A DNA stretch of 64,000 nt. It comes from Bacteroidales bacterium. Lineage in GTDB: Bacteria; Bacteroidota; Bacteroidia; Bacteroidales; P3. The translations under genes and the position numbers were made by a program. Numbering within the stretch: position 1 is the first letter of the stretch; each line of letters begins with the position of its first letter. The notes beneath the pieces were generated by a model that had not been told where the DNA came from, did no database searches, and saw only the letters and a list, made by a program, of their open reading frames with translations. The stretch is taken from the NCBI GenBank assembly GCA_017633985.1, contig JAGBOF010000033.1:3774-67773 (forward strand), written 5' to 3'. Below are positions 1-32,079 of this stretch, one piece after another.

Positions 1-585
1 GTACAGGATGCTTTGGATTCCACTACTTCCAAAAAATATACTTCAAATACGAAAAGAAAGCCTTCTTCATCCAAACCGTCTTCTTCCGGTAAGACCAATC
101 CGTCATCAAACAACAAAAAACCTTCTTCATCCTCATCATCTTCTTCCTCATCCTCCAAAACCAATACGGCAGATGCGGTATACAATGATTCCAAGGCTTA
201 TTTGCGTAAACGTTCCACCCAGTTGTCCGATTATTGCATGTCTTGGGTAGGCACTCCGCATGTCTTGGGCGGCATGACACGTCAGGGCGTTGATTGCAGC
301 GGGTTTGTTTATAATGTATATAAGGATGTTTATGATATAGTCTTGCCGCGCAGAAGTGCCGATATGGAAAAAGAAGTTGATTTGTATAAATCCGCATCCC
401 AGATGCGTGAAGGGGATTTGATATTTTTCGGCAAAAACAGTGTTAATCATGTAGGTATTTTCTTGGAGGGCAGCAATTTTATCCACACCTCCACATCCAA
501 AGGCGTTGTCGTATCGTCATTGGAAGAAAAATACTGGAAAGAGAATTTCCGTTCGTGCGGACATCACCCTAAAGTAAAGAACTGA
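1..585 (+). CDS. NlpC/P60 family peptidoglycan endopeptidase; the 5' end lies outside the window
   Basis: Frame 1 is open from base 1. The C-terminal domain has the NlpC/P60 layout (GVDCSGFV ... NHVGIF ... FIHTS). It is preceded by a Ser/Pro/Lys-rich linker with a poly-Ser run. Confidence 0.8.
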   Translation, partial: VQDALDSTTSKKYTSNTKRKPSSSKPSSSGKTNPSSNNKKPSSSSSSSSSSSKTNTADAVYNDSKAYLRKRSTQLSDYCMSWVGTPHVLGGMTRQGVDCSGFVYNVYKDVYDIVLPRRSADMEKEVDLYKSASQMREGDLIFFGKNSVNHVGIFLEGSNFIHTSTSKGVVVSSLEEKYWKENFRSCGHHPKVKN

Positions 586-8346: not shown

Positions 8347-9087
8347 ATGTTTCTGTTTTTTAAAAACGCAAGAACAGAACAAGATAAAGAGTTATTAAAA
8401 TTTCTTAAGAATATTCTTGGGTTCAAACCCGGGAATATTCTTTTGTATAAGACGGCACTGATTCATAAATCCAAATCCCATAAAGACAGCAAAGGTTTCC
8501 GTGTAAATAACGAACGGTTGGAATACCTTGGCGACACGGTGTTGAGTACAATTATCGGCGATTATCTGTTTAAAAAATATCCGCATCAAGGCGAAGGATT
8601 TTTGACGGAAATGCGTTCAAAGATAGTCAGCCGCAGTTCCCTTAATGCCCTGTCCAAAAAAATCGGATTGGCACAACTGATAGAGTATACGCACGGTAAA
8701 GGCGGCGGTTATCTGTCTATGAGCGGCGATGCTTTTGAGGCGTTGACTGGGGCTATGTATCTGGACAAAGGTTACGATTTTACGTATAAGGTTTTGATAA
8801 ACCGCATATTTACGATATACCTTAATGTTGCCGATATGGAGACAAAGGATTGGAACTACAAGAGTAAGATTATTGATTGGGGGCAAAAGACCCGCCACCG
8901 CATATCTTATCAGGTTATTGATGTAAATGAGGACAACAAACGCAAGCAATACAAGGTTCAGATCTTCATTGATTCTTTTCCGCAGGAGACTGCAATAGAT
9001 TTTTCCATAAAAGCCGCCGAGCAATTGGCAAGTGAGAAGACCTATAAACGCTTACTTGACAGCGGCATCATCACAAACGAAAATTAG
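8347..9087 (+). CDS. rnc: Ribonuclease III
   Basis: It has the RNase III signature ERLEYLGDTVL and a C-terminal dsRBD-like region. The ATG at 8347 follows the fabF stop (8343-8345). The ORF-track TTG at 8338 would overlap that stop. Confidence 0.9.
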   Translation: MFLFFKNARTEQDKELLKFLKNILGFKPGNILLYKTALIHKSKSHKDSKGFRVNNERLEYLGDTVLSTIIGDYLFKKYPHQGEGFLTEMRSKIVSRSSLNALSKKIGLAQLIEYTHGKGGGYLSMSGDAFEALTGAMYLDKGYDFTYKVLINRIFTIYLNVADMETKDWNYKSKIIDWGQKTRHRISYQVIDVNEDNKRKQYKVQIFIDSFPQETAIDFSIKAAEQLASEKTYKRLLDSGIITNEN

Positions 9088-9323
9088 ACTTTCAATAAAT
9101 CAGTTACAGCATAGACCTTGCTTAAGTCATTGAATGTAAAGAATTGGTCATCCAATATCATCCAATTCTGACGTTGCTTTACAGAAAGTTTTTTTATGTC
9201 TGGGAAAAAAGAGACAGGCACGATAACTACACGTCCGTCAGAAAGAAACGCCTCTATCTTTCCTCTATAATCCGTGAAATTCAAATCCTTTATGCCTACA
9301 TTTGTATTACTTATTTTGCACAT
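9084..9323 (-). CDS. DUF2442-like small protein
   Basis: 79 aa. The pattern (DGRVVIVPVSFFP ... L ... QR.NW.I ... F) resembles DUF2442. It lies 2 nt downstream of the DUF4160-like gene on the same strand. Confidence 0.55.
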   Translation of the reverse strand: MCKISNTNVGIKDLNFTDYRGKIEAFLSDGRVVIVPVSFFPDIKKLSVKQRQNWMILDDQFFTFNDLSKVYAVTDLLKV

Positions 9324-9325
9324 AA

Positions 9326-9598
9326 CTATTCCTCCAAATTCTTCACAATCGTTTTTTCGCCGTTAAAAGATTTTGTTATTTGTTTATTCAAGAAATCCCA
9401 ATTTCGTTCTATTGCATTGATTAACATTGAATTTTCCTTGTTAGTCAGCGAAGATTCTGCGATTTCCACACATTTAACCCCGTTCTTTTCTATCCATATT
9501 TTGGCGACAGAATGCATTTTGCGTGAGCCTCTTCTGAATATATGAATATGCCTGCGGTTGTCAAACATATCAGTAGGTATAGATACCAGCAAAAACAT
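9326..9598 (-). CDS. DUF4160-like small protein
   Basis: About 91 aa counted from the Met at 9598. The N-terminus (MFLLVSIPTDMFDNRRHIHIF) resembles the DUF4160 'HxH' N-terminal motif. A TATTTTTG box lies at 9653-9660. Confidence 0.5.
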   Translation of the reverse strand: MFLLVSIPTDMFDNRRHIHIFRRGSRKMHSVAKIWIEKNGVKCVEIAESSLTNKENSMLINAIERNWDFLNKQITKSFNGEKTIVKNLEE

Positions 9599-9652
9599 TT
9601 TCAAAAATGCCAATTGTCCCATTAGTAAAGTTATTTTGCGGTTAAATTTTTG

Positions 9653-9660
9653 CAAAAATA
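9653..9660 (-). promoter_or_regulatory. -7 box TATTTTTG (DUF4160/DUF2442 pair)
   Basis: TAnnTTTG match on the minus strand. It lies inside the ORF-track N-terminal extension, which argues for an internal start. Confidence 0.5.
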
Positions 9661-9763
9661 CTGTTTTTTATTGTAATGTTAAAGTTTTTGAGACAAATAT
9701 TAGGCTGTCACAATATTTTTATATGCGTTACAAACATGTATTACTGTATTCTATAAATTAAGA

Positions 9764-9885
9764 TGCCGTCCCGCAAAATTAATCAGCGATAAGAAAAAAT
9801 TATTCTGCGTGATTAGTAAAATAATCTGCGAGAATAATTTTTTCTTCTCGCAGATTATTTTCGTAAAGCGGCGTCTTATTTCCGC
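9764..9885. repeat. 21-nt phased GC-core/AT-linker array (6 units) 3' of LRR gene A
   Basis: Cores GCCGTCCCGC, CAGCGAT, CTGCGTG, CTGCGAG, CTCGCAG and GCGGCGTC. The last five are spaced 22, 21, 21 and 21 nt apart. The interior is nearly identical to 14524-14632. Confidence 0.8.
9820..9859 (-). terminator. Perfect 15-bp hairpin inside the array (likely terminator of LRR gene A)
   Basis: AATAATCTGCGAGAA (9820-9834) pairs with TTCTCGCAGATTATT (9845-9859) around a 10-nt T-rich loop. It lies about 45 nt after the stop codon. Confidence 0.6.
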
Positions 9886-9901
9886 AGCTTGTATTTTGAT
9901 A

Positions 9902-12900
9902 TTATTCAATTATCAGCGGCTGCGTGAATTTTCCTACGTTGATATAGTATACTCCCGTCTCAAAATCGCTAACATTGATATCTTTAACGCCTTTAATGTT
10001 CTTGATTTCTCTAACAATCTGGCCTTTGTTATCAATTATCTTAATATCACCGTCGGCATGAATAGTTACTCTGTCTTTTGCAGGATTCGGATAAATACTT
10101 ATTATCTTTTCTTGTGTAATTTCCTCAATACCTGCAGTGACTTGTAGGTATAAAGTAACAATACTGTCGCATCCGTCATCGGTTTGAAGATTTAAGGTAT
10201 ATTCACCCGCATCTGATTCGGTAAATCCGTAACCATTGTAGGTTTCACCTGCATTTATTTCTGCATAAATATACGTCCTCGTCACCCCGCACGGTGTTAT
10301 GGTATCATGAAGATAAACAGTATCTATTGTATTAACGGTATCGTACAATGTTAAGGTGATAGTGTCTGTTAATGTGACAGTGTCTGTCTGCGTTAATGTG
10401 ATTGTGTCGGTTAATGTGACGGTATCGTATAGTGTTAAGGTGATAGTGTCGGTTGTATTGATAGTATCGTATAGCGTTAAGGTGATTGTATCAGTTAAAG
10501 TAACTGTATCGGTCTGTATCAAGGTGATTGTGTCAATTGTATTGATTGTATCGTATAGTGTTAAAACTATTGTGTCAGTTGTATTGATAGTATCATACAA
10601 TGTTAAAGTAACAGTGTCGGTCGTGTTGATAGTATCGTATAATGTTAAGGTGATAGTGTCAGTTAAAGTTACGGTATCTGTTTTAAGTGTTGTAAGGTTT
10701 AATCTAATAATGCTGTCGCAACCGTTAATTGTCTGAAGGTTTTGAATGTAATTGCCTTCGGATTGCTGGGTAAAACCGTTTAATGTATATGTATCCCCAC
10801 TTTGGATAATGCTTTCAATAAGCGTATCGTATGAAGGATTGACTGTCAGATTCAAAGTAACGATGCTGTCGCATTCATACTTGTTTAACAGATTTGCAAC
10901 ATATTCACCCGATTGTGTAAGCGTCTGTCCGTTAAATTCGAATCCGTCTCCCTGACATATACTTTTGTTAACAACGGTGTATTCCGTGTCACCCAAACGG
11001 TGTAATACCTCCGTGGAATACGTCCAGGTATTGTAATAACTGTCGAAACTGCCGCAAGGGACCCATATCCAGTCAGTCCCGCCTCTGTAGAACCTGTCAT
11101 AGCCTACAAAAGGAGCAGTCAAAGGGTAAGCATATACGGTATCAATGTAACAATCCTTAAACAAACGTTGAGGTAAACTTGTTACGTTCTCGTCAATTGT
11201 TAAGGTTTTGATATTATTACATTGATTGAATACTCCGTTAGGGTCACCGTAAGTATGCATAATGCTTGTGCAAGACGGAGAATTATAATTAATGATTTGT
11301 AAACTGTCACAGTTGGAAAATGCGCCTTCTTCCAATGTGTCCACCTTGTTGCTTACAGTTACTTCCTTAATATTTGTTCCCGAAAAAGCAAACACTCCGA
11401 TTCTTCTTACGTTGTCAGGCAGAGTTATATCTGCTTTTTTATTGTTTCTTAAGAAATAATGCGGGATGTATTCAACATCATTGCTGATTGTTACGTTTGT
11501 TAACGCCGTGTCATTGTCAAACATACCCAATCCTTCAAAGCAAGCATTATAATCAACATATACAGGATTATATTCAACTGCCGTAAGGTTAGGACAATAA
11601 GCAAAAGCTGCGCAACCGATAGAGGTTACCGTCTCGGGAATTGTCACCTCACTGATAGCAGTGGATGCAAAAGCATATTTACCTATTGAAGTGACATTGT
11701 CAGGCAGCGGTGCCGAAATAAGGTTGCCGCAATTGTTAAATGCATAATCGCCTATTTTCTTCAAAGAATTAGGAAAAGTCAATGAGGTTATCCCCTTTTC
11801 ATTGCTAAGTAAATAATTAGGTATTGTTTCTACATTACTGCCAATAACAAAGTTTTGAATTTTTCCATTCCTTGCAAGACCGTTAGAATAATCGGACGTA
11901 TATACTGCATTCTTTGCATTATAATATACAAACTCTAATGAATCACAACCTAACAGCGGAGTAATACCTATACTGTCAATCCCTTCAGGAATAGTAAATG
12001 TTTTCAATCTATTACAGTTTGCAAACAAATACCACGGGATAACTTCAACGTCATTTCCTATTGTTGCTGTTTCCACGTTAGTCCAATTGACAGAATGATT
12101 GTATATGTCTCCTAAACTATTACAATGCTTGGCATTCCAATGAACGGTTTTTAAACTTGTAGTATTTCCGAAGGCATTATTGCCCATATAAGTTAGACCT
12201 GCAGGAATGGTTATTTCACTGACAGATACTACTCCTTCAAAAGCACCGTTATCTATTGTCTGTAAACTGTCAGGAAAAGTAATTGACGTAATTCGGTTAC
12301 AACCGCTGAATGCATATGCTCCGATACTCCTTAAGGAAGCAGGGAAATTTACCTGTGTTATCTTCGGGCAACCGGCAAACAGATTGTTAGGTAATTTTTG
12401 AACTTCATTTCCTATAATAACCTTATCCAAATTACCTGCAACAACTTTTGACTTATAAAAATCATTTGCTCTGTCAGATGGATGAATTGTATGATAATCT
12501 ATACTAATTGCATTATAATACATAGTCTTCAAACTATCACACCCGGTAAAGATTTCCCAACCTAAATAAGTTACAGTCTTCGGAATTGTTATTTCTTTAA
12601 GTTTAGTACAACCATAAAAAGCGTTATTGCATAGAGAATCAAGACCTTCCTGTACAATACAAGTTTCCAGACTTGAAGAAAGATAAAATGCATGGTCTCC
12701 GATGTATTTTAATGAAGAAGACAGAGTAAGAGATGTTAAATTATCACTTCTGAAGAATGCCCATGGACTTATGTATTTTACGGTGGACGGAAGTGTAAGC
12801 GTATAGTCTTGGGTTGCCATTCCCCTCGCATGAACGATTAAGGTGTCTTTTGCTTTATTATACAAACACCTGTTTTCCATAACATAGTTAGTGTTACCCT

Positions 12901-13261
12901 CTTCCAATGTTATTTCAAAAGCTCCGTGAAAAGCACCGCATTCAATATATTTAACGGTATTAGGAATTGTAATATTTGTCCTGCCTGTTACACTACCGTA
13001 ATATCCGATTTGATATCCGATACTCGTGACGGTATATTCGTCGCCGTTGTAAGTAACTTTCGATGGTATAACAATGTTAGTACTGTTACCTGTGATACTT
13101 GTCATTTTTACTTCAAAGTTAGGATAAACATTAGAAGTAATTTGATAATACAATCCGCCTGAACTGAAATAACTGCCTACGGTTTGTGCATTAGTTTGCA
13201 CACATGTCAATCCTAAACAATAAAGGATTGCAACTAATAAAACTTTTTTCAATTTTGCCAT
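9902..13261 (-). CDS. BspA-type leucine-rich-repeat (LRR_5) surface protein with a T9SS C-terminal sorting domain (LRR gene A)
   Basis: 1119 aa. The signal peptide is MAKLKKVLLVAILYCLGLTCVQTNAQ. It has more than 20 LRR_5-like units (IP..V..IG..AF..C..L..I), Cys-bracketed GCDS modules and a Thr-rich DT(V/I)TL repeat tract. The Por-type CTD reads IYPNPAKDRVTI ... GVYYINVGKFTQPLIIE. Confidence 0.85.
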   Translation of the reverse strand: MAKLKKVLLVAILYCLGLTCVQTNAQTVGSYFSSGGLYYQITSNVYPNFEVKMTSITGNSTNIVIPSKVTYNGDEYTVTSIGYQIGYYGSVTGRTNITIPNTVKYIECGAFHGAFEITLEEGNTNYVMENRCLYNKAKDTLIVHARGMATQDYTLTLPSTVKYISPWAFFRSDNLTSLTLSSSLKYIGDHAFYLSSSLETCIVQEGLDSLCNNAFYGCTKLKEITIPKTVTYLGWEIFTGCDSLKTMYYNAISIDYHTIHPSDRANDFYKSKVVAGNLDKVIIGNEVQKLPNNLFAGCPKITQVNFPASLRSIGAYAFSGCNRITSITFPDSLQTIDNGAFEGVVSVSEITIPAGLTYMGNNAFGNTTSLKTVHWNAKHCNSLGDIYNHSVNWTNVETATIGNDVEVIPWYLFANCNRLKTFTIPEGIDSIGITPLLGCDSLEFVYYNAKNAVYTSDYSNGLARNGKIQNFVIGSNVETIPNYLLSNEKGITSLTFPNSLKKIGDYAFNNCGNLISAPLPDNVTSIGKYAFASTAISEVTIPETVTSIGCAAFAYCPNLTAVEYNPVYVDYNACFEGLGMFDNDTALTNVTISNDVEYIPHYFLRNNKKADITLPDNVRRIGVFAFSGTNIKEVTVSNKVDTLEEGAFSNCDSLQIINYNSPSCTSIMHTYGDPNGVFNQCNNIKTLTIDENVTSLPQRLFKDCYIDTVYAYPLTAPFVGYDRFYRGGTDWIWVPCGSFDSYYNTWTYSTEVLHRLGDTEYTVVNKSICQGDGFEFNGQTLTQSGEYVANLLNKYECDSIVTLNLTVNPSYDTLIESIIQSGDTYTLNGFTQQSEGNYIQNLQTINGCDSIIRLNLTTLKTDTVTLTDTITLTLYDTINTTDTVTLTLYDTINTTDTIVLTLYDTINTIDTITLIQTDTVTLTDTITLTLYDTINTTDTITLTLYDTVTLTDTITLTQTDTVTLTDTITLTLYDTVNTIDTVYLHDTITPCGVTRTYIYAEINAGETYNGYGFTESDAGEYTLNLQTDDGCDSIVTLYLQVTAGIEEITQEKIISIYPNPAKDRVTIHADGDIKIIDNKGQIVREIKNIKGVKDINVSDFETGVYYINVGKFTQPLIIE
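10300..10690 (-). repeat. In-frame Thr-rich periodic repeat tract (TDT[VI]TL / TLYDTINT units)
   Basis: The protein reads LKTDTVTLTDTITLTLYDTINTTDTVTLTLYDTINT ... DTVYLHDTITPCG. The plus-strand shadow ORF reads VSVNVTVSV. Confidence 0.85.
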
Positions 13262-13599
13262 TTTCTTTCTTATTTTATTATGATTAATAATTTAATTTGT
13301 TCTTTACAATACATAAAAAGAAACCGTGGGAAACTTTTCTTGTTTATCACTTTTCCACGGTCTTTTCTACGAACCTTATTCCATCTAAACATACAAAGCC
13401 CACGATTTCTCGTGAGCGAGGCTTTCATGTTCTTTAGGAATAATATTACTTTTTATAGTGTAGAAAAGTTTTGGAAAAGTAATACGAACACAAAGCTAAC
13501 GCTTTATTTCTCTTATGTCAATATTTTATTATCTTATTTTCTAAATCATATCGTATTTATCCTTAATATAATATTTTATTTTCACCCCTTTATCTTATG
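13262..13599 (-). promoter_or_regulatory. Long conserved 5' leader of LRR gene A (candidate cis-regulatory RNA)
   Basis: It lies between the -7 box (13600-13607) and the ATG (13261). It shares blocks with the LRR gene B leader: hairpin ACCGTGG..CCACGGT (13323-13361), hairpin AAAGCC-CACGATTTCTCGTG-..-GGCTTT (13395-13425) and CTAACGCTTTATT (near 13495). Confidence 0.5.
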
Positions 13600-13607
13600 C
13601 AAAAGTA
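13600..13607 (-). promoter_or_regulatory. -7 box TACTTTTG (LRR gene A promoter)
   Basis: The reverse complement of caaaagta. The same GCAAAAGTAC context recurs at 18122-18131 upstream of LRR gene B. Confidence 0.55.
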
Positions 13608-13775
13608 CAAATATTTCTTTAATTAGCAAAATATCGCTCTATTCCTCTGACAAATCAAAGCGTGAACTGTCTAAAAGTTATATTTAAACCCTGTAGACAA
13701 CAAACCCTTGTTACCCGCACCTCAATCAAGAAAGGACTTACACTTTTTACCTATTTCAACACCTATCTGCGTGAC

Positions 13776-14273
13776 TTAAAAAGCCAATTGCATAGTATTG
13801 TCGTTCTCTGTCGGCACGCTGTTGTTATCCAATGCCTTCGTTCTTTCATTTCTATAGCATAGTCCAAGTCCAATATAAGAATAGAAATTAACCGAATTGC
13901 TGCGTGACCAAATTCTTTTAACGGTAGGAACAAAGTAATAATAGCGTCTTAAGTTCTCTTCCCTGTAATCGGAGCTGTGATAAGTCTCTCTTGTTATTGT
14001 TTTGTTGGCACTGAAACCTGCAAAAGCGCCGAAAGCAAGTTTATCCGAGTAGTTATAGCTGTAATCAACTGCGTATGAGCCGTAAGCCGTCATATCGTCG
14101 GGTGTAACAAGTCCGAAAGTAATAACCGCCACTAATATGTCAGCAAACATACGTCCGTCGGTAGAAGGCAAAACTCCTGCGGAAATACCTATATCGTGTT
14201 TGCCGTTTTGCGCCTGTGCCAAACAGGGAATAAACAATAATCCTAATAAGAACCCGATAATCAGTTTTTTCAT
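13776..14273 (-). CDS. Small outer-membrane beta-barrel (porin-family) protein
   Basis: 165 aa. The signal peptide is MKKLIIGFLLGLLFIPCLAQA. It shows alternating aromatic/aliphatic beta-strand patterns and a C-terminal Phe. Confidence 0.6.
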   Translation of the reverse strand: MKKLIIGFLLGLLFIPCLAQAQNGKHDIGISAGVLPSTDGRMFADILVAVITFGLVTPDDMTAYGSYAVDYSYNYSDKLAFGAFAGFSANKTITRETYHSSDYREENLRRYYYFVPTVKRIWSRSNSVNFYSYIGLGLCYRNERTKALDNNSVPTENDNTMQLAF

Positions 14274-14366
14274 ATTCTCTGAAAGTTTTATGTTTTTTGT
14301 TGTTAAATAATTTTCACTGTGTTCATTGCAGTTTCATCATCATTGATGAGGATGTAATCAGTGGTG

Positions 14367-14374
14367 CAAAATTA
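14367..14374 (-). promoter_or_regulatory. -7 box TAATTTTG (small OMP gene)
   Basis: The reverse complement of caaaatta, about 95 nt upstream of the ATG at 14273. Confidence 0.5.
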
Positions 14375-14523
14375 CAAAAAATTCTGCAATTCGCTGCCGT
14401 TTTATGGCAGACTTATGTTTTGCCGCGGTCATAAATTTCCGTAACGCAGCCTTACAACACAACCAAACGTCTTTTTAATGTCAAAATTCATCAAATGCCC
14501 ATAGTCAAAAAACGTTTACTTAA

Positions 14524-14632
14524 AATAAGACGCCGTCCCGCGAAATTAATCAGCGATAAGAAAAAATTAATCTGCGTGATTAATAAAATAATCTGCGAGA
14601 ATAATTTTTTCTTCTCGCAGATTATTTTCAGA
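14524..14632. repeat. 21-nt phased GC-core/AT-linker array 3' of LRR gene B
   Basis: AAGACGCCGTCCCGCG, CAGCGAT, CTGCGTG, CTGCGAG, CTCGCAG. It is near-identical to 9764-9860. Confidence 0.8.
14587..14626 (-). terminator. Perfect 15-bp hairpin inside the array (likely terminator of LRR gene B)
   Basis: AATAATCTGCGAGAA (14587-14601) pairs with TTCTCGCAGATTATT (14612-14626). Confidence 0.6.
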
Positions 14633-14647
14633 GTTTGTAATCTCTTA

Positions 14648-17600
14648 TTATTCAATTATCAATGGTTGCGTGAATTTACCTACTTTTATGTAGTAAATTC
14701 CCGCCTTGAAATCCTTAATATTGATATCAAGTTGTTGAGATTGTATGTCGGATTTATAGACAACTTGTCCCGCATTGTTAATAATAGTTATTACCTTATC
14801 ACCATCCAATATCAAATGTCCGATATCCAATGTAACTTTGTCTTTTGCAGGATTCGGATAAATATTCAGTGAAACGGTTTCCGTAATGCCGTCTATTCCG
14901 CTGTCGTGCTTATAGTGGATTGTCGTAGTTACTATACTGTCGCAACCGAATTGGGATTGAAGCGTATCAATAATTACTTCGTCGTATTCATCCATGGTTG
15001 CATCTTCAAGTATACGCGTTTCTTCTGCACTGACGCTGTATGTCTGATGAGCGGTAAGCGTCAATACGATTATGCTGTCCTTATCCATGTTTACGTGAAC
15101 GGTGTCTTTGTATTCTCCCGCAACGCTTAATTCCCGTCCGTTAAAGTTATAGGTTTCTCCCTCGCATATTGATGCCTCGATATTTACCGTAACGATTTCT
15201 TTATTGCAACCTGTTTCGGTATAATTGGCGAACATGTTCCACCAAGCTGCGGATTTGTAAGTATTCATTGCACCGCACGGAACAAAGACAGGTATGGTGT
15301 TCAAAACTTCTTCGAATGTGGAGCTGTAGATTGTCGGCGGCACTTCTGCGTAAGATACGATCGTGTCCATGTTTTCACAAAATGCAAACGCCTTTTTGTC
15401 AATCTTGGCAACGCCTGTGCCTAATTCCAGATATGAAAGGTTGCCGCAATTGCTGAATGCGTATGTTCCGATGTTTTTTACGCTATTAGGAAGTATTATT
15501 TTGTTGATTTTATGAAATTTGGATATGAACTTACTGTCTTGGTCAGGATTGTAAGGGTTATAGTTTAAGGTTCTGCCTTGAAGAAGTTTGGCGGGGATGT
15601 TTTCAACCTTATCTCCGAAAATAAATGCGGATATATTGGTGTCACCGTCAAACATAGGATAAACTTCATCTTCGTAGTCTTCATCGTAAATATACGAAGC
15701 ATTAATGGCGTTCCATCTGACTGTATCCAGCGATGTGCAATCTGCGAATGCCTGTTCGCCTATCTTTTCCACATTTTCAGGAATAGTGACAGTCTTTAAG
15801 TTCTTACATCCGCGGAACACATTGGAACCAATAGATTTCAGACTGTTCGGCAAAATTATACTGTCAGTTAGAAAATTACGGAATAAGCCCTCGTCAAGTT
15901 TTTCGACATTGCTGCCGATATTTACCTTTGTTATGGTCGGATTTGTCGAGAACACGTAAGAACCGCATGAAGCATTGACGGCATTATAGTTCAATGTGTC
16001 AAGGTTTGTACATTCTGGAAAAACATAACGTTCTATTGTATCTACATTTTCAGGGATTGTGACGGAAGTTAGACCTATGCAATTAGCAAAAGCATTTTCT
16101 CCTATAAATGTAACCGATGACGGAATTTCTATTTTCGTTATCTTCTTAAATCTATTGTCAGCTATCGTGTCGAAAATATATTCTTGTGTTTGGTAATCGA
16201 AGTTTGCCATAATATCCATAGGTCCGTATAATATCGCTTGAGGAATTCTTTTTACTCCGTCTGCAAATATAAATGAAGATATATTGACGGATTCGGAGAA
16301 TGGACTTTCAGAATAATCGTGTGTGCAATTAACTGCATTAAAATTAACGGTTGTTAAACTTTTGTTGTCTGAAAATGCATGTACTCCGATACTTTCAACG
16401 GCGGCAGGAATAGTTAAATCAGTAATGCCAAGCCCCGTCAAAGACAAATCGCCTATTGTTTTAACGCTTTCAGGCAGTGATAATGATTTTATTTTGTTAA
16501 AATCCAAGGTGTCAGTGTATAAATAATCACCCTTATCATCTGCAATGTTTTTCAATTCCTGCTTGAAAAGTTTATCAGGAATAACTTCTACATTTTCTCC
16601 GAAGTTAATTTCAGAGATATTTGTATCAGCGTAGAACATAGAGTGATTTTGTGAATAATATGAAGCCTTATAGTAACAATTCTTCGCATTGAAATTAACT
16701 TTTGTCAGAGACGGAAGATCGGCAAAAGCTTCTGTGCCGATGGTATCAACTGTTGATGGGATAGTTATCTCTGTCAAGCCCGTGTTCATAAATGCCGAAT
16801 CTCCTATAATCCGTACTCCGTCAGGAATAGTAACGGAAGAAAGATTTATCTGATTCAATAAAAACTTATCGGGAATAGCTTCCACACTGTCCCCTATGTT
16901 TACAGTTGTAATGTTGAAGCTTCCAAAAATATGTTTTTTGCTTAATTGGAAATCGTAGGAGTCATAATATATACGGGAGGTTATGTCATATAAGCCATTT
17001 AATTCATTTTGCCAAGCGTTTCTCTTTTGAAATACAAATGCAGCAGCTTTAGCATTATAGTTCAAGGTTTTTAATTGTTTTATTCCGTGAAAACAATCTA
17101 ATCCGAATTCTTTTACTGACGCAGGAATGGTAATTGTGTTAATTTTAGGGAATCTGCATACAATACTGTCATAATAAGTGTATGAGAAGTCCCATATCCG
17201 AATTGTATCTTCGTCTAAAAATCCGTTGGGGATAACTTCCACATGGTTTCCTATATTAACCGTAGATATATTGGTATCTCTGTCAAACATGCTTCCCACT
17301 ATATCATACTCACTTTTATATACCGTAGCGTTATAAGCACGTATTGCATTATAATTTACGGTTTGCAGTTTTGTACATAAAGCAAACGCTTTGTTACCTA
17401 CAACCTTTACATTTTCAGGAATTGTAATTGTAGTTAGATTGTAGCAGTTGTAGAATGAGGAATCTCCTATTACCTGCATGGAATTAGGGAAAACTACTGA
17501 TTGAATGCCTAATCCGGGAAATGCTCCGTTGTCTACGGCATTTACCGTGAATGTTTTGTTGCCGTGACTGACGGATGACGGTATATTAACATTCGAAAGA

Positions 17601-17782
17601 TTTGCATAGCTGTAGTTGTTAATGACTTTTACTGTGCTGTCGGATGTTACTTCGAAGTACAGCTTACCGTCGGTAATCGTGTCGGCAATGTTATCACCGC
17701 TTCCGTGTGCCTTTGTTTGCTCACCTACCAGTCCCAATAATATAAGGACTGCAATTGATAAAGATTTTAATGATTTTTTCAT
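14648..17782 (-). CDS. BspA-type LRR surface protein with a T9SS C-terminal sorting domain (LRR gene B)
   Basis: The start is set at the Met giving signal peptide MKKSLKSLSIAVLILLGLVG. It has LRR_5-like units throughout and the CTD NIYPNPAKDKVTL ... GIYYIKVGKFTQPLIIE. It lacks the Thr-rich tract. Confidence 0.85.
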   Translation of the reverse strand: MKKSLKSLSIAVLILLGLVGEQTKAHGSGDNIADTITDGKLYFEVTSDSTVKVINNYSYANLSNVNIPSSVSHGNKTFTVNAVDNGAFPGLGIQSVVFPNSMQVIGDSSFYNCYNLTTITIPENVKVVGNKAFALCTKLQTVNYNAIRAYNATVYKSEYDIVGSMFDRDTNISTVNIGNHVEVIPNGFLDEDTIRIWDFSYTYYDSIVCRFPKINTITIPASVKEFGLDCFHGIKQLKTLNYNAKAAAFVFQKRNAWQNELNGLYDITSRIYYDSYDFQLSKKHIFGSFNITTVNIGDSVEAIPDKFLLNQINLSSVTIPDGVRIIGDSAFMNTGLTEITIPSTVDTIGTEAFADLPSLTKVNFNAKNCYYKASYYSQNHSMFYADTNISEINFGENVEVIPDKLFKQELKNIADDKGDYLYTDTLDFNKIKSLSLPESVKTIGDLSLTGLGITDLTIPAAVESIGVHAFSDNKSLTTVNFNAVNCTHDYSESPFSESVNISSFIFADGVKRIPQAILYGPMDIMANFDYQTQEYIFDTIADNRFKKITKIEIPSSVTFIGENAFANCIGLTSVTIPENVDTIERYVFPECTNLDTLNYNAVNASCGSYVFSTNPTITKVNIGSNVEKLDEGLFRNFLTDSIILPNSLKSIGSNVFRGCKNLKTVTIPENVEKIGEQAFADCTSLDTVRWNAINASYIYDEDYEDEVYPMFDGDTNISAFIFGDKVENIPAKLLQGRTLNYNPYNPDQDSKFISKFHKINKIILPNSVKNIGTYAFSNCGNLSYLELGTGVAKIDKKAFAFCENMDTIVSYAEVPPTIYSSTFEEVLNTIPVFVPCGAMNTYKSAAWWNMFANYTETGCNKEIVTVNIEASICEGETYNFNGRELSVAGEYKDTVHVNMDKDSIIVLTLTAHQTYSVSAEETRILEDATMDEYDEVIIDTLQSQFGCDSIVTTTIHYKHDSGIDGITETVSLNIYPNPAKDKVTLDIGHLILDGDKVITIINNAGQVVYKSDIQSQQLDINIKDFKAGIYYIKVGKFTQPLIIE

Positions 17783-18122
17783 TTGTTTGTCTGTGCAGAT
17801 TACCCGCTGCATCCCCCGGGTCTTATTGTTTTTATATTTTTGTTATTTGGAATTAAGACATAAAAAAGTAACCGTGAAACTTTCCTGTAATTTCCCCACG
17901 GTTTTCGACGACCCTTTCATAGATATACACGAAGCCCACGATTTCTCGCAGGCGAAAGACTTCGTTCTAAAATCTATAAAAGGTAACACTTCTTATGTTG
18001 TCGAAATTTGTGGGGAAGTGCAGAACTGTTAATCTAACGCTTTATTCTTTTATGTCATAATTTTATTACATGCTTATATCATATTATTTATTAGTTTAAG
18101 TATCTTAAAAAACTTGTTTTTG
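17783..18122 (-). promoter_or_regulatory. Long conserved 5' leader of LRR gene B (candidate cis-regulatory RNA)
   Basis: It shares with leader A the exact 15-mer GCCCACGATTTCTCG (17934-17948) inside a hairpin closed by CGAAG/CTTCG (17930-17964). It also shares ACCGTG..CACGGT (17871-17902) and CTAACGCTTTATT (near 18035). Confidence 0.5.
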
Positions 18123-18130
18123 CAAAAGTA
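18123..18130 (-). promoter_or_regulatory. -7 box TACTTTTG (LRR gene B promoter)
   Basis: The reverse complement of caaaagta, in the same context as 13600-13607. Confidence 0.55.
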
Positions 18131-18192
18131 CGAATAAAAATCTAAACGCAGTCAATTTAAACGGAAAAACAATTGTTTTTTGTTGCGTTTGC

Positions 18193-19032
18193 TTACTGTT
18201 TTGTTATTTCTGACTGCAACATATCAATTATTTCCTGCGTCAATACATCCTTACATTTGTCCCAAGGGATAAGAATGTCAGGCAGACCCGCAGCATACGG
18301 CGCTATCTCGTATTGTTGGTACTGTAATATCAGTCCGTCACCGGAGAAATAAGGAGCTTGTGCAGGCAAAGGTATTGACGGGCTGTCCAAAATCAACTGT
18401 TCTTTCAACTGTTGAACCGTCGCAACTTCGAAATAGTCCTTCAAACCGTCGGTAATGTATTGTAAAAGTTTGTTTTTGTCCTTTATCATGTTCCAACCGT
18501 ATGTCTTACCCGTTTTATTGTCGAAAGTCTGACTGTAAACAGTTGTCGAACCGTGGGCACCGCCCAAGAAACAATAATTCATTATTGAAAGGCTTGTCAG
18601 ATATGTGTTTTTGAAGGATACGAATATGCTGTCATGGTTTTCCAACAGCATGCCGTCTTCAAAGAACATGTCTTCGTCTTTGTTTGCCGACGCTTCTTTC
18701 ATTTTCTGCTGCGAATAATAAGTCACAAGAGCCTGCGCATCGGTTCTGTTGCCTTTGAATGCGGGCATTTTGCCCTCTTCCGAAAAAGGATTGTAGCTTA
18801 ACACGGTGTCAATCCACATACGCACCGAATCCAGATATTGTTTCTCTCCGCTTACAGGATATTCCGCCCAAACGGATGAGCTGCATGTCTTATCGGAATG
18901 CGCTGCGTGAAATGCTTTGTACTCTGCTGATTGGATATTTCCGCTTTCGGCTGATGTATGTTGCTTATTGCATGCGGCAAACAGGCAGATTATGCCCGCT
19001 AAAGCCAATGATAGTTTACTTAAATGTCCCAT
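18193..19032 (-). CDS. DUF3298/DUF4163-like lipoprotein (RsiV-type domain)
   Basis: 279 aa. The lipoprotein signal is LALAGIICLFAAC. The FLGGAHG motif is followed by a TxxFDxxTGK pattern typical of DUF3298. Confidence 0.6.
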   Translation of the reverse strand: MGHLSKLSLALAGIICLFAACNKQHTSAESGNIQSAEYKAFHAAHSDKTCSSSVWAEYPVSGEKQYLDSVRMWIDTVLSYNPFSEEGKMPAFKGNRTDAQALVTYYSQQKMKEASANKDEDMFFEDGMLLENHDSIFVSFKNTYLTSLSIMNYCFLGGAHGSTTVYSQTFDNKTGKTYGWNMIKDKNKLLQYITDGLKDYFEVATVQQLKEQLILDSPSIPLPAQAPYFSGDGLILQYQQYEIAPYAAGLPDILIPWDKCKDVLTQEIIDMLQSEITKQ

Positions 19033-19061
19033 TATGATAACCGTTATATGTTAAATTTCTG

Positions 19062-19069
19062 CAAAAATA
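19062..19069 (-). promoter_or_regulatory. -7 box TATTTTTG (DUF3298 gene)
   Basis: The reverse complement of caaaaata, about 30 nt upstream of the ATG at 19032. Confidence 0.5.
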
Positions 19070-19207
19070 CATCTTTTTGCGTTAATTCGGCAGATTAATC
19101 GGAACAATTATCTTTTTGCGGCATTATTTTGTCGTTTTACCGTGGGTGTTCGGCGTATTTCGGATGCCTTTTGGCGGAATAATCCCGCCCTTAAGCATAA
19201 TAATTTT

Positions 19208-19310
19208 GCCCCGTGCCGTATTATTTTCAAAAAAAGGGTTTTTTACACAGAAAAAAACAGTTTTTTTAGGTCAAAAAAAGGGTTTTTTTGAAAATAATAC
19301 GGCAAGGGGC
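19208..19310. repeat. Large imperfect palindrome in a divergent promoter region
   Basis: The 28-nt arm GCCCCGTGCCGTATTATTTTCAAAAAAA (19208-19235) pairs with TTTTTTTGAAAATAATACGGCAAGGGGC (19283-19310) with one mismatch. The 47-nt spacer holds two AAAAAAAGGGTTTTTT direct repeats and a central AAAAAAACAGTTTTTTT. Confidence 0.7.
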
Positions 19311-19398
19311 GGCGTTAATAAGTGACAAGGCATCAATAAGAAGCAAAAAGTACACGGGAAAGCGTAATTTTGGTAAGGTTATATGTATGAAAAAAGTT

Positions 19399-19406
19399 TA
19401 ATTTTG
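19399..19406 (+). promoter_or_regulatory. -7 box TAATTTTG (aldo/keto reductase)
   Basis: TAnnTTTG match about 40 nt upstream of the ATG at 19445. Confidence 0.55.
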
Positions 19407-19444
19407 CAATAGAATCAGAATAATATATAAAAAACATACAGCAA

Positions 19445-20290
19445 ATGAAAGAGATAAAATTAAACAACGGCGTTATGATGCCGCAAATCGGCTACGGAGT
19501 ATTCCAAGTAGAGCCTGCAGAATGCGAAAGATGCGTTGCCGATGCTTTAAAAGTCGGTTACCGCATGATAGACACTGCCCAGGCTTATTTTAATGAAGAA
19601 GGCGTCGGTGCAGCAATACGCAAAAGCGGAATAAACCGCAAGGAAATTTTCTTGGTTTCGAAGATATGGGTCTCCAATTACGGTTACGACAAAGCAAAAG
19701 CAAGCATTGATGAATCTTTGCGCAAACTCAGCACGGATTATATTGATTTGATGTTGCTACATCAGCCTTTCGGCGATTATTACGGTGCATACAGGGCAAT
19801 GGAAGATGCATACAAGGAAGGAAAATTGCGTTCGGTGGGAGTAAGTAACTTTTACGCTGACCGTTTTATCGATTTGGCTTCGAATTTTGAGATTAAGCCT
19901 GCCGTAAATCAGATGGAGACACACGTATTTTGCCAACAGCAGGAGTTAAGCAAGTACCTTAAGGATTTCGGTACGTACCTTATGGCATGGGGTCCGCTTG
20001 CCGAGGGCAGAAACAACTTCTTTACCCATCCTGTGTTGACGGATATTGGCAAAAAGTATAATAAGAGTGCTGCGCAGACGGCTTTGAGATATTTATTGCA
20101 AAGGGATGTTATCATAATTCCGAAGTCCACCCATGCAGAACGCATGCAGCAGAATTTGGATATACTTGATTTTGAATTAACCGGCGAAGATATGGACAGG
20201 ATTCAGCAATTGGATGAAAAGCATTCGTTGATTATGGGTTCGCATCAAGATCCTGAAGTAGTCAAATGGTTTATGGATTTTATTAAATAG
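19445..20290 (+). CDS. Aldo/keto reductase family oxidoreductase
   Basis: 281 aa with AKR signatures (GYG.FQV, GYRMIDTA..Y.NE, LLHQP, IPKS....R...N). Confidence 0.9.
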   Translation: MKEIKLNNGVMMPQIGYGVFQVEPAECERCVADALKVGYRMIDTAQAYFNEEGVGAAIRKSGINRKEIFLVSKIWVSNYGYDKAKASIDESLRKLSTDYIDLMLLHQPFGDYYGAYRAMEDAYKEGKLRSVGVSNFYADRFIDLASNFEIKPAVNQMETHVFCQQQELSKYLKDFGTYLMAWGPLAEGRNNFFTHPVLTDIGKKYNKSAAQTALRYLLQRDVIIIPKSTHAERMQQNLDILDFELTGEDMDRIQQLDEKHSLIMGSHQDPEVVKWFMDFIK

Positions 20291-31371: not shown

Positions 31372-32079
31372 ATGACAATAGAAATAAAAAATCTTACAAA
31401 AATATACGGAACCCAAAAGGCTTTGGATAACGTTTCTTTGACTGCATCACAAGGCGAAATCGTGGGTTTGTTGGGTCCTAACGGTGCAGGAAAGAGTACG
31501 ATGATGAAAATCATCACATGTTTTATTCCTCCTACACAGGGTGAAGTTAAAGTTTGCGGATTTGATATTTTTGAAGAACCGATGCAAATACGTTCACTTA
31601 TAGGTTATCTTCCCGAACAAAACCCTTTGTATTTGGATTTGTATGTAAGGGAGTCGTTGGATTTCATTGCCAGCATTCATAAATTGAAAGGCAAAGAAAA
31701 GAAACAACGGGTTGAGCAGATGATTGAACTTGTCGGGCTGACAAAGGAGATGAATAAAAAGATAGGTGCATTGTCCAAAGGATACAGGCAGCGTGTAGGG
31801 TTGGCACAGGCAATGATTCATGACCCCAAAGTGCTTATTCTGGATGAACCGACCACGGGACTGGATCCTAATCAACTGGTGGAAATACGTCAGATTATAA
31901 AACAAATGGGTCGACAGAAGACGGTACTTCTTTCCACTCACATAATGCAGGAAGTGGAAGCTGTATGCTCACGCGCAATTATAATAAACAACGGACAACT
32001 TGTTGCTGACGATACCGTTGAACATCTTTCGCAGGGCGGCTCATTGGAAAAGAAATTCAGGGAAATAACATTGATGTAA
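31372..32079 (+). CDS. ABC transporter ATP-binding protein (ABC-2 / GldA-like subfamily)
   Basis: 235 aa with Walker A GPNGAGKST, signature LSKGYRQR and Walker B LILDEPTTGLD. No permease gene is adjacent. Confidence 0.9.
   Translation: MTIEIKNLTKIYGTQKALDNVSLTASQGEIVGLLGPNGAGKSTMMKIITCFIPPTQGEVKVCGFDIFEEPMQIRSLIGYLPEQNPLYLDLYVRESLDFIASIHKLKGKEKKQRVEQMIELVGLTKEMNKKIGALSKGYRQRVGLAQAMIHDPKVLILDEPTTGLDPNQLVEIRQIIKQMGRQKTVLLSTHIMQEVEAVCSRAIIINNGQLVADDTVEHLSQGGSLEKKFREITLM

Follow-up and report, generated by a model that had tools for sequence, protein, structure and literature searches.

The approximately 350 bases 5' of LRR gene B encode a long, hairpin-shaped RNA of a family that is conserved in gut Bacteroidales. 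Gene B lies on the minus strand of the 64-kb stretch of DNA analysed here (the window), and its leader (leader B, with rod RNA copy B) is very probably a copy of a structured cis-leader RNA family. The RNA would probably decide the entry of transcription and translation into gene B. BspA-type LRR and other exported or accessory proteins shape the adhesion of gut Bacteroidales to hosts and neighbours, and to our knowledge the switching of their genes is poorly understood. A strongly covarying 190-nt leader RNA before such genes would be a new class of regulatory RNA for the phylum. Compared to copy A, copy B adds a linkage to the LRR gene that is kept in an orthologue, conservation of the leader cassette independently of the ORF, and a GC module of the gene-B lineage.

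Parts and fold of leader B

The blocks that the original prediction had listed for copy B were all found at their positions on the minus strand, and alignment of both leaders gave the same block order as in copy A (Table 1). The motif TAnnTTTG is the -7 box of Bacteroidota and is found in 12 of 17 loci at a distance of ~30-103 nt upstream of the rod; in leader B we infer that transcription starts just after the TACTTTTG box. The rod of copy B has a length of ~190 nt and consists of five nested helices; GAAA caps its tip, and its base carries a U-run. The predicted hairpin CGAAG...CTTCG exists and forms the tip of this rod. Both leaders fold about five standard deviations better than shuffled sequences (z = -5.1 for leader B, z = -5.5 for leader A). 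The 13-mer AATAAAGCGTTAG occurs within the window only at the two leaders (two or more matches in 4 of 100 shuffles), while the 17-mer CGAGAAATCGTGGGCTT has exactly two occurrences and one 3-mismatch match elsewhere (three or more matches in 0 of 100 shuffles). After the first conserved block, copy B carries GAUU in place of GCUU.

Table 1 Features of leader B and gene B, with rod RNA copy A, in window coordinates
Feature	Position	Strand	Remarks
Promoter -7 box TACTTTTG	18123-18130	-	Fits TAnnTTTG; ends 68 nt upstream of rod
AU-rich 5' leader part, presumed transcription start to rod	18057-18115	-	TAATAAAAT..TGACATAA common to copy A
Rod RNA copy B	17863-18054	-	Full-length match to covariance model R2, model positions 1-190
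Outer rod base, GACAUAAAAG with CUUUUUUAUGUC	18047-18056 with 17857-17868	-	Encloses U-run
Conserved block AATAAAGCGTTAG / AAUAAAGCGUUAG	18034-18046	-	5' strand of closing helix P0
H1, 5' strand UUCCCCAC with GUGGGGAA	18010-18017 with 17892-17899	-	
H2, 5' strand UUUCGAC with GUCGAAA	18000-18006 with 17903-17909	-	
H3, 5' strand CCUUUUAUAGAU with AUCUAUGAAAGG	17972-17983 with 17913-17924	-	Longer in B than family consensus
Rod tip, H4 CGAAG/CUUCG	17930-17964	-	Hairpin of the original prediction
H5 GCCUGCGA-GAAA-UCGUGGGC	17934-17953	-	Inside H4; CGA-GAAA-TCG enclosed
3' strands of H3, H2 and H1	17892-17924	-	Conserved junction AACC in B, GACC in most members
Alternative hairpin AACCGUG/CACGGUU	17897-17903 with 17870-17876	-	Overlaps H1 by 3 nt, takes CACGG from P0
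U-run UUUUUU, 3' rod base	17862-17867	-	Candidate termination point
GC module	17794-17821	-	Extra hairpin of the original prediction; two overlapping 5-bp stems
GC module stem 1, ACCCG with CGGGU	17817-17821 with 17802-17806	-	
GC module stem 2, UGCAG with CUGCA	17807-17811 with 17794-17798	-	
Upstream in-frame ATG inside GC module	17810-17812	-	TTG in L011, not conserved
Probable true start of LRR gene B; N-terminus MKKSLKSL... with signal peptide	17780-17782	-	Homologous N-terminus in L011
LRR gene B	14648-17782	-	BspA-type LRR_5 protein with type IX secretion C-terminal sorting domain
Rod RNA copy A, 5' of LRR gene A	13315-13516	-	R2: 63.5 bits, E=1.3e-11

A second hairpin had been predicted from ACCGTG (17897-17902) and CACGGT (17871-17876). 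Both motifs are present but are not preferred partners, and the pair was rejected as an element of the conserved fold, in which GUG belongs to H1 and CACGG to the closing helix. The local hairpin of B has a dG of -9.8 kcal/mol (z = -1.9) and an equilibrium pair probability of ~0, and forcing it costs 10.7 kcal/mol in B and 5.9 kcal/mol in A. Among the members examined, it occurs only in the window copies A and B; in B it is followed by ACUUUUUU downstream. We regard it as, at most, an alternative pairing. Small ORFs are present in both leaders as predicted, with 52 codons in A (ATG at 13428) and 25 codons in B (ATG within the frame 17843-17989), one on each side of the apical hairpin.

Covariation and spread of the rod family

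The family alignment was obtained with a single-sequence covariance model and subsequent realignment, and model R2 was built from nine members, all from outside the window. A search of the 64-kb window with R2 recovered copy B with 48.7 bits (E=2e-8) as well as copy A, and no other match with E<1. The original view of copy B as a second leader copy that is conserved at the RNA and not the peptide level is supported by this recovery of both copies with a model built without either, by 18 model base pairs at which A and B differ on both sides with pairing kept in both, by the lack of homology between their small ORFs, and by an identity of only 26% between the proteins of genes A and B.

Family-wide, 92.4% of the cells at paired positions are indeed paired (16 distinct members), compared to 40-46% in slid controls, and 42 of 64 pairs have compensatory changes on both sides, a count that was reached in 0 of 500 shuffles. 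Pairing amounts to 99.3% in H1 (9 of 9 pairs covary), 100% in H2 (6 of 7) and 99.1% in the H3 of the model (7 of 7). Copy B itself has 62 scorable pairs, of which 26 match the consensus, 21 are changed on both sides and 8 on one side but still pair, and 7 are unpaired. In the family alignment, stems covary and loops stay fixed. Selection on the fold acts at the level of RNA of the same strand as the gene, as G·U outnumbers A·C by 100 to 17 among the family pair cells; hits scored 13-26 bits on the reverse strand versus 49-238 bits on the sense strand.

Copy B contains the conserved blocks AAAGCGUUAG and CGAGAAAUCGUGGGCUU and the junction (G/A)ACC; the invariance of the two blocks among loci L001-L010 was imposed by the search pattern. 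Six further rods (L011, L017, L018, L019, L021, L022) were reached without this pattern via LRR homologues, and the rod of L011 has a different apical loop and compensatory changes in H5. No rod was found at the LRR homologues L015 and L016. All 16 complete members have a run of 5-8 U at the 3' rod base, located directly after the closing helix in most members and with an offset of 2-5 nt in A, B and L011, and only one change from A-U to G-C was seen at a U-run position across the family. The helix of the rod base extends past the U-run (GACAUA/UAUGUC) in A, B, L001, L002, L011, L017 and L018. In nearly all members, the strand preceding the U-run repeats the 5' strand of H5. Alternative complementarity is conserved between the H5 3' strand and the strand before the U-run, and between the 5' block and the pre-H5 junction; none of the alternative pairings clearly frees the U-run, and L011 and window copy B point in opposite directions.

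The family is spread among Bacteroidales (Prevotellaceae and relatives) of termite and other guts. A pattern scan of contigs matched two MAGs, which understates this spread, as the scan used a gap of 70-100 nt and most members have 66-71 nt. Viral contigs yielded no match to two patterns. Rfam 15 models gave no match in any leader (cmscan, E<=1; window positions 9000-20000, L001 and L002), and the leader family was not found in the literature searched. A search for RNA runs returned none for the window and none for L005. Related rods are covered by contigs from a termite-gut metatranscriptome, which extend beyond the U-run by at least 58 nt and by ~130 nt, with the reservation that such contigs may include DNA and that contig ends are not transcript ends. 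From termite-gut metagenomes, 42 and 36 contigs align to L008, many of them over the rod.

Genes behind the rod and the start-codon region

A same-strand ORF begins 40-170 nt after the rod in all 16 loci with downstream sequence and usually encodes an exported or membrane protein. A scripted scan of 10 loci found no TAnnTTTG box in the interval from rod to ORF, and none was seen in the other spacers; the gene must therefore be transcribed through the rod. In copy B, the AUG is located 80 nt beyond the U-run, behind a spacer that likewise has no TAnnTTTG. The upstream neighbour is divergent in L002, L006 and L021, and thus the rod is not a 3' UTR. By comparison of spacers, conservation of the leader cassette reaches the start codon whichever ORF follows: those of L001 and L002 are 85% identical in front of unrelated proteins, and L005 and L009 have a common spacer module, also with unrelated proteins. 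The linkage of rod and LRR gene is kept in L011, a 45%-identical orthologue of gene B at another chromosomal site, and rods precede LRR genes of 3.1-5.5 kb in window A and B, L011, L018, L019, L021 and L022. Many members precede short genes (104-357 aa), and the rod is often found beside toxin-antitoxin or defence genes. Copies A and B are less than 5 kb apart in the window; the other loci (5-25 kb) hold single copies and no arrays. Gene C, the last in the window, is cut off by the window border, with its leader outside view.

For LRR gene B, translation had been predicted to start at 17782, with the ATG at 17812 being spurious. The orthologue L011 corroborates this, having TTG at the upstream site and a homologous N-terminus from the downstream ATG. 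The extra GC hairpin predicted at this start was confirmed with respect to the presence of ACCCG/CGGGT but its stability is not beyond chance (dG -8.4 kcal/mol, z = -0.43; 55 of 200 shuffles fold as well). The two interlocking 5-bp stems that this GC module can form end 11-12 nt before the AUG. The module is the best-conserved stretch in the leader of L011, with ~26 of 30 nt identical and TGCAGCGGGTNATCTGCA at L011 5923-5940, and is best read, from this conservation, as a putative lineage-specific start-codon element of the gene-B lineage. An effect of the hairpin on the ribosome-binding region is possible. A link between the GC module and H1 was discarded, as the complementarities of B and L011 disagree.

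Proposed function and comparison with known systems

The best overall explanation, to which we assign about an even chance, is a portable cis-acting leader that would gate read-through at the rod base and U-run and would carry a lineage-specific start-codon module. Approximately 65 nt after its presumed start, the RNA folds into the 190-nt rod (18054-17863) with P0, then H1-H5 and the GAAA cap, the rod base being formed by an A-rich strand paired to the U-run. The rod would zip up from tip to base, trailing the polymerase, and upon emergence of the last strand (CACGG and the U-run) the closing helix beside the U-run would end most transcripts; in A and B, the local AACCGUG/CACGGUU hairpin could likewise terminate. 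A putative factor, which may bind the invariant blocks AAAGCGUUAG and CGAGAAAUCGUGGGCUU, would block the closing helix and let the polymerase read into the LRR gene. In the gene-B lineage, the GC element might act as a second module that tunes translation initiation.

Attenuation as the mechanism of leader B is proposed tentatively, at slightly less than an even chance. A closing helix followed by a run of 5-8 U is a terminator-like geometry. The leader also resembles attenuators and riboswitch platforms in the length and structure of its 5' RNA, in having a promoter of its own, in the helix and U-run ahead of the gene, and in its competing pairings, here P0 versus the local hairpin (A and B) and H5 versus the 3'-end copy of its 5' strand. 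Unlike these systems, the rod has no identifiable sensor domain or ligand logic and its downstream genes are heterogeneous. Its terminator stem would be the base of a 170-nt rod instead of a small local hairpin; a stem closed over ~170 nt is unusual for a terminator, and a simple terminator scan did not call the rod base. Furthermore, the helix past the U-run is as compatible with the structure of a read-through RNA as with a terminator, and no antiterminator pairing was found that is both clean and conserved, the local hairpin of A and B being much weaker than the rod. Nor does the model account for the repeat of the H5 5' strand ahead of the U-run.

Several of these observations would suit a leader that acts post-transcriptionally, a possible but doubtful reading in which the rod within the full-length mRNA controls processing, stability or translation. 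The rod would be a substrate of a double-strand-specific RNase or a 5' stabiliser, the AUG-side spacer, including the GC element in B, would set initiation, and the U-run would merely be the partner of the A-rich strand. The continuation of the rod base beyond the U-run in seven copies, conservation up to the start codon whatever the ORF, the position of the GC module and its conservation in L011, and RNA contigs that pass the U-run are all in line with this. However, short helices of 7-12 bp that are interrupted by conserved loops would be poorly suited to RNase III, the stability of the GC hairpin is not exceptional, and 5-8 U are kept in every complete member without drift to other base pairs. 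Recurrence before LRR genes of 3.1-5.5 kb might instead indicate processive antitermination, in which the rod, alone or with a NusG-like protein, would modify RNA polymerase to pass terminators in a long gene. Phage HK022 put RNAs, the Bacillus EAR element and LoaP leaders are such systems; like the rod, they are structured leader RNAs of long or accessory operons, and they act in cis on the polymerase. The invariant blocks and the conserved shape are as expected of a binding site, but many members precede genes of only 104-357 aa, no partner gene such as a NusG paralogue is linked, and Rfam revealed no similarity to put or EAR; we consider this reading unlikely.

The promoter box upstream and the U-run at the end could delimit an independent trans-acting sRNA that has a promoter and a terminator to itself, in which case the neighbouring gene would only receive leaky read-through. 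Such an sRNA is improbable, since each of the 16 loci has a same-strand ORF downstream that lacks a separate promoter box, since sequence after the U-run is conserved with the rod and not with the ORF, and since no single-stranded seed is evident, the RNA being nearly all paired. BTnc163 of B. thetaiotaomicron is an sRNA of 102 nt with a start site at 3765732 (NC_004663.1:3765732-3765834; PMC7366714). A DNA-level or selfish repeat without RNA function (MITE/REP-like, an integron attC-like site, or an operator) is very improbable. The near-palindrome with A-run/T-run ends, its many related copies in termite-gut metagenomes, the frequent toxin-antitoxin or defence-gene neighbours and the inverted repeat TGCAG-N8-CTGCA in the GC module are features of this kind, and imperfect intergenic palindromes that are multicopy in metagenomes and located beside toxin-antitoxin modules are reminiscent of Correia, ERIC, REP and attC repeats. 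Yet the rod has a single orientation relative to the next gene at all 16 loci, stems with compensatory changes, a strand-specific excess of G·U over A·C, conserved loops, single copies without arrays, and no matches on viral contigs. An attC site was rejected in particular, as the order of the core sites is reversed (GTTAGC comes first).

The preferred cis-acting leader may also be part of a wider scheme, which we offer as a speculative possibility of low probability. The unit from promoter to start codon would be a portable "universal leader", that is, a horizontally shuffled cassette that provides one common RNA switch for surface, membrane and defence-island genes which gut Bacteroidales have recently acquired. 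The tip and base helices, which share the strand GCUCACG, would be read by one dedicated factor or would set the switch by exchanging strands, and the AUG-side subfamily modules would form a second gate at the level of translation, possibly with a pseudoknot in B.

Other structured RNAs share single traits with the rod. The rod-like shape, the length of ~190 nt and the closure by its two ends are reminiscent of 6S RNA (RF00013; Bacteroidales-1 RF01693), from which it differs in lacking an Rfam match and a large central bubble, in having two copies less than 5 kb apart, and in always being a gene leader. A K-turn at the H1/H2 junction was rejected, as no tandem G·A pairs were seen by eye. The FopS/GibS sRNAs of Bacteroides likewise form a family of non-coding RNAs that exists in multiple copies in gut Bacteroidales and has promoters of the sigma-ABfr type (PMC11697453). 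FopS consists of a single-stranded 5' seed (R1) and then a terminator hairpin; it targets susC-type mRNAs in trans and is represented in Rfam (PMC11697453). Identity with FopS/GibS was dismissed, the rod being 190 nt of almost fully paired RNA with no Rfam match. SrcF of Segatella copri has 272 nt and is confined to the Segatella species complex.

A structured RNA in the leader of LRR gene B

On the minus strand, leader B lies in the 411 nt that separate LRR gene B from the stop of the DUF3298 gene (18193). All blocks that the original prediction listed for it were present at their positions, and alignment with leader A, which precedes LRR gene A, gave the same block order. The 13-mer was found only at leaders A and B, with an equal count in 4 of 100 shuffles, while a 17-mer occurred exactly twice and its match count was reached by none of 100 shuffles. 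Each leader folded about 5 SD better than shuffles. Small ORFs exist in both leaders and are placed differently, as had been stated, with a length of 52 codons in leader A and 25 codons in leader B. Because LRR proteins A and B share only 26% identity, the leaders are much better kept than the genes they precede.

Features of leader B in window coordinates (T or U as recorded)
Feature	5' strand or element	Position	3' strand or element	Position	Strand
Box	TACTTTTG	18123-18130			-
13-mer block	AATAAAGCGTTAG	18034-18046			-
Outer base	GACAUAAAAG	18047-18056	CUUUUUUAUGUC	17857-17868	-
Closing helix P0	AAAGCGUUAGA	within 18034-18046	UUUCACGG		-
H1	UUCCCCAC	18010-18017	GUGGGGAA	17892-17899	-
H2	UUUCGAC	18000-18006	GUCGAAA	17903-17909	-
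H3	CCUUUUAUAGAU	17972-17983	AUCUAUGAAAGG	17913-17924	-
H4	CGAAG		CUUCG		-
H5 (17934-17953, GAAA loop)	GCCUGCGA		UCGUGGGC		-
Predicted hairpin		17930-17964			-
Complementary blocks	ACCGTG	17897-17902	CACGGT	17871-17876	-
U-run		17862-17867			-
GC hairpin	ACCCG	17817-17821	CGGGT	17802-17806	-
ATG codons	upstream in-frame ATG	17812	second ATG	17782	-

Copy B, a rod of about 190 nt, genuinely belongs to a family of structured leader RNAs without an Rfam entry, and the original prediction is supported. A two-block pattern scan recovered the same element from two Prevotellaceae MAGs (L001, L002; a lower bound, as the gap setting was too narrow) and from eight metagenome contigs (L003-L010), with the sequencing runs containing L008 labelled as termite gut; pattern scans of viral contigs found no element. 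The stem sequences of these relatives differ widely, with pairing kept. Starting from a single-sequence covariance model (R1), nine non-window members were realigned (A7) and used for the family model R2, which thus contains no window sequence. On the 64-kb window, R2 gave two full-length matches, one of 63.5 bits to copy A (13315-13516, E=1.3e-11) and one of 48.7 bits to copy B (17863-18054, E=2e-8), with nothing else below E=1. Since the two blocks were fixed by the search pattern, members were also sought by way of neighbouring proteins; six more rod loci (L011, L017, L018, L019, L021, L022) were reached from LRR protein B homologues, and the rod was absent at two further LRR-homologue loci (L015, L016). 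Rfam 15 returned nothing at E <= 1 for leaders A and B or for those of L001 and L002. The FopS/GibS sRNAs are set apart by their description, having an architecture unlike the rod and an entry in Rfam (PMC11697453); BTnc163 of B. thetaiotaomicron is 102 nt long (3765732-3765834; supplement of PMC7366714). A three-mismatch match to the apical block, GGCGAAATCGTGGGTTT at 31453-31469 (+), is probably due to chance because no covariance-model match was obtained there.

The fold is supported by 16 distinct sequences, in which 92.4% of pair cells were standard pairs, compared to 40-46% in slid-partner controls, a margin that is large even though alignments fitted to the model are biased toward its structure. 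Both sides changed at 42 of 64 pairs, helices H1, H2, and H3 were 99-100% paired with covariation at nearly every pair, and none of five pairing measures was reached by any of 500 shuffles. Among the 62 scorable pairs of copy B, 26 equal the consensus, 21 are changed on both sides and 8 on one side but still paired, and 7 are unpaired; 18 pairs differ on both sides between A and B and are paired in each copy. ACCGTG and CACGGT are present and complementary in A and B, as predicted, but each sits in a different helix of the family fold. Their local hairpin has -9.8 kcal/mol in copy B, forcing it makes the fold less stable by 10.7 kcal/mol in B and by 5.9 kcal/mol in A, and the complementarity is limited to these two copies among the members seen.

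Genomic context and proposed mode of action

Upstream of the rod, 12 of 17 loci have a TAnnTTTG box, and no such box was found between rod and ORF in 10 script-scanned loci or in the remaining spacers, which were inspected. An ORF on the same strand begins 40-170 nt past the rod in all 16 loci with downstream sequence. The upstream neighbour is divergent in L002, L006, and L021, so the rod is not a 3' UTR. BspA-type LRR/T9SS proteins follow the rod in both window copies, L011, L018, L019, L021, and L022; at other loci it is followed by lipoproteins and further proteins with a signal peptide, by small membrane proteins, an 8xMP family member among them, and by two proteins lacking a signal peptide. 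The genes before the rod are often of toxin-antitoxin/defence type (PIN, HepT-like, DUF2442, AbiEii, AAA_15, AAA_14).

G·U cells exceeded A·C cells (100 versus 17) and covariance-model scores were 49-238 bits on the sense strand versus 13-26 bits on the reverse strand; selection on the fold therefore acts in RNA of the gene's strand and not in DNA, which makes a DNA repeat highly improbable. An independent sRNA is somewhat less remote but still improbable, given the spacers. Those of L001 and L002 are 85% identical in front of unrelated proteins, and L005 (590-615) and L009 (~30 nt before the ORF at 458) share GYGCCCGACACGGAUUARGGG shortly upstream of start codons that belong to unrelated ORFs; this motif is a second module of the cassette, specific to a subfamily. 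The cassette thus stays conserved past the U-run regardless of the ORF, which argues for a read-through leader and against a stand-alone sRNA gene.

A promoter box precedes the conserved, strand-specific rod of leader B, the rod has a U-run at its base and no promoter box behind it, and conservation extends to the AUG. Our best guess, held tentatively, is an attenuator. The rod would zip from tip to base during synthesis, and the closing helix would then form beside the U-run and end transcription unless a factor, presumably bound to the invariant blocks, prevented closing; the gene would be expressed by read-through past the rod. Termite-gut metatranscriptome contigs cover three related rods and two of them extend past the U-run, one for at least 58 nt and the other for about 130 nt, so that read-through RNA probably exists, with DNA carry-over possible in these contigs. 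Four observations speak against a simple attenuator: the stem of the terminator closes over 170 nt, the helix extends beyond the U-run, family members share no clean conserved antiterminator, and the strand before the U-run is a copy of the H5 5' strand. The energy of its pairing with the 3' strand of H5 is -6.8 kcal/mol in B, compared to -10.4 to -12.7 kcal/mol in 13 of the 14 distinct members; a parallel G-to-A change in L011 keeps this alternative pairing and breaks P0, whereas C-to-A and G-to-U changes in copy B keep P0 instead. A leader acting post-transcriptionally, on processing, stability or translation, is rather unlikely, and a processive antitermination RNA is as improbable as the sRNA.

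The GC module and further features

The extra GC hairpin predicted just before the start codon is present in leader B and not in A, and on its own has ordinary stability (-8.4 kcal/mol, z=-0.43). This element recurs in L011 (CGGG.G.UGCAGCGGGU.AUCUGCACA), the leader of the closest LRR gene B orthologue (protein P0003, 45% identity; located at another chromosomal site, after nqrF), and no other part of the leader alignment is as well conserved. It comprises two overlapping 5-bp stems, ACCCG/CGGGU and UGCAG/CUGCA, whose order would permit an H-type pseudoknot; its loops would measure 5, 0, and 3 nt, the last being tight for a pseudoknot. Four differences between B and L011, three in loops and one C-to-U change keeping a U·G pair, weakly support the stems in this comparison of two sequences only. 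In both leaders, 11-12 nt separate the end of the element from the AUG. The upstream ATG of B is TTG in L011 and the N-termini are homologous from the downstream ATG, so that 17782 is the start, as predicted. The element is taken to be the gene-B subfamily's version of the spacer modules in other subfamilies, and an effect on translation initiation is plausible because Bacteroidota have no clear ribosome-binding-site consensus (bioRxiv 10.1101/2024.04.05.588293). UCUGCAC is found in the module (17792-17799) and again between P0 and H1 of the rod (18018-18024), through which UGCAG could also pair with the rod; as it is absent from L011, the repeat is probably due to chance.

In other spacers, (U)UGGGAC(U/A) (L004, L007, L017, L018-L022) complements the GUCCCA strand preceding the U-run of the same members, a pairing of 6-8 bp that would place the U-run within a loop. 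A REP-like GC hairpin (GGGGCGAGGCAT...GCCTCGCCCC) in L008 (785-882) and L009 (about 300-420) is probably a very abundant repeat, because word depth over the L008 stretch, which also overlaps the 3' end of the rod, is 300-1770 in two termite-gut metagenomes. In L002, the DUF805b RNA motif (RF02914) is matched below threshold at 547-579 (-) (28.2 bits, E=1.5e-4; gathering score 35.6), directly 3' of the lipoprotein gene that follows the rod. Within the window, a near-perfect palindrome of ~130 nt (19194-19326) separates divergent DUF3298 and aldo/keto reductase genes, and Rfam gave just noise-level miRNA-type matches to it on both strands. Each LRR gene is directly followed by a 109-nt block (9754-9862, 14521-14629) that is 95% identical between copies, compared to about 70% for the leaders and 26% for the proteins. 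The duplicated unit seems to consist of leader, gene, and 3' block, of which the last is conserved much better than the other two.
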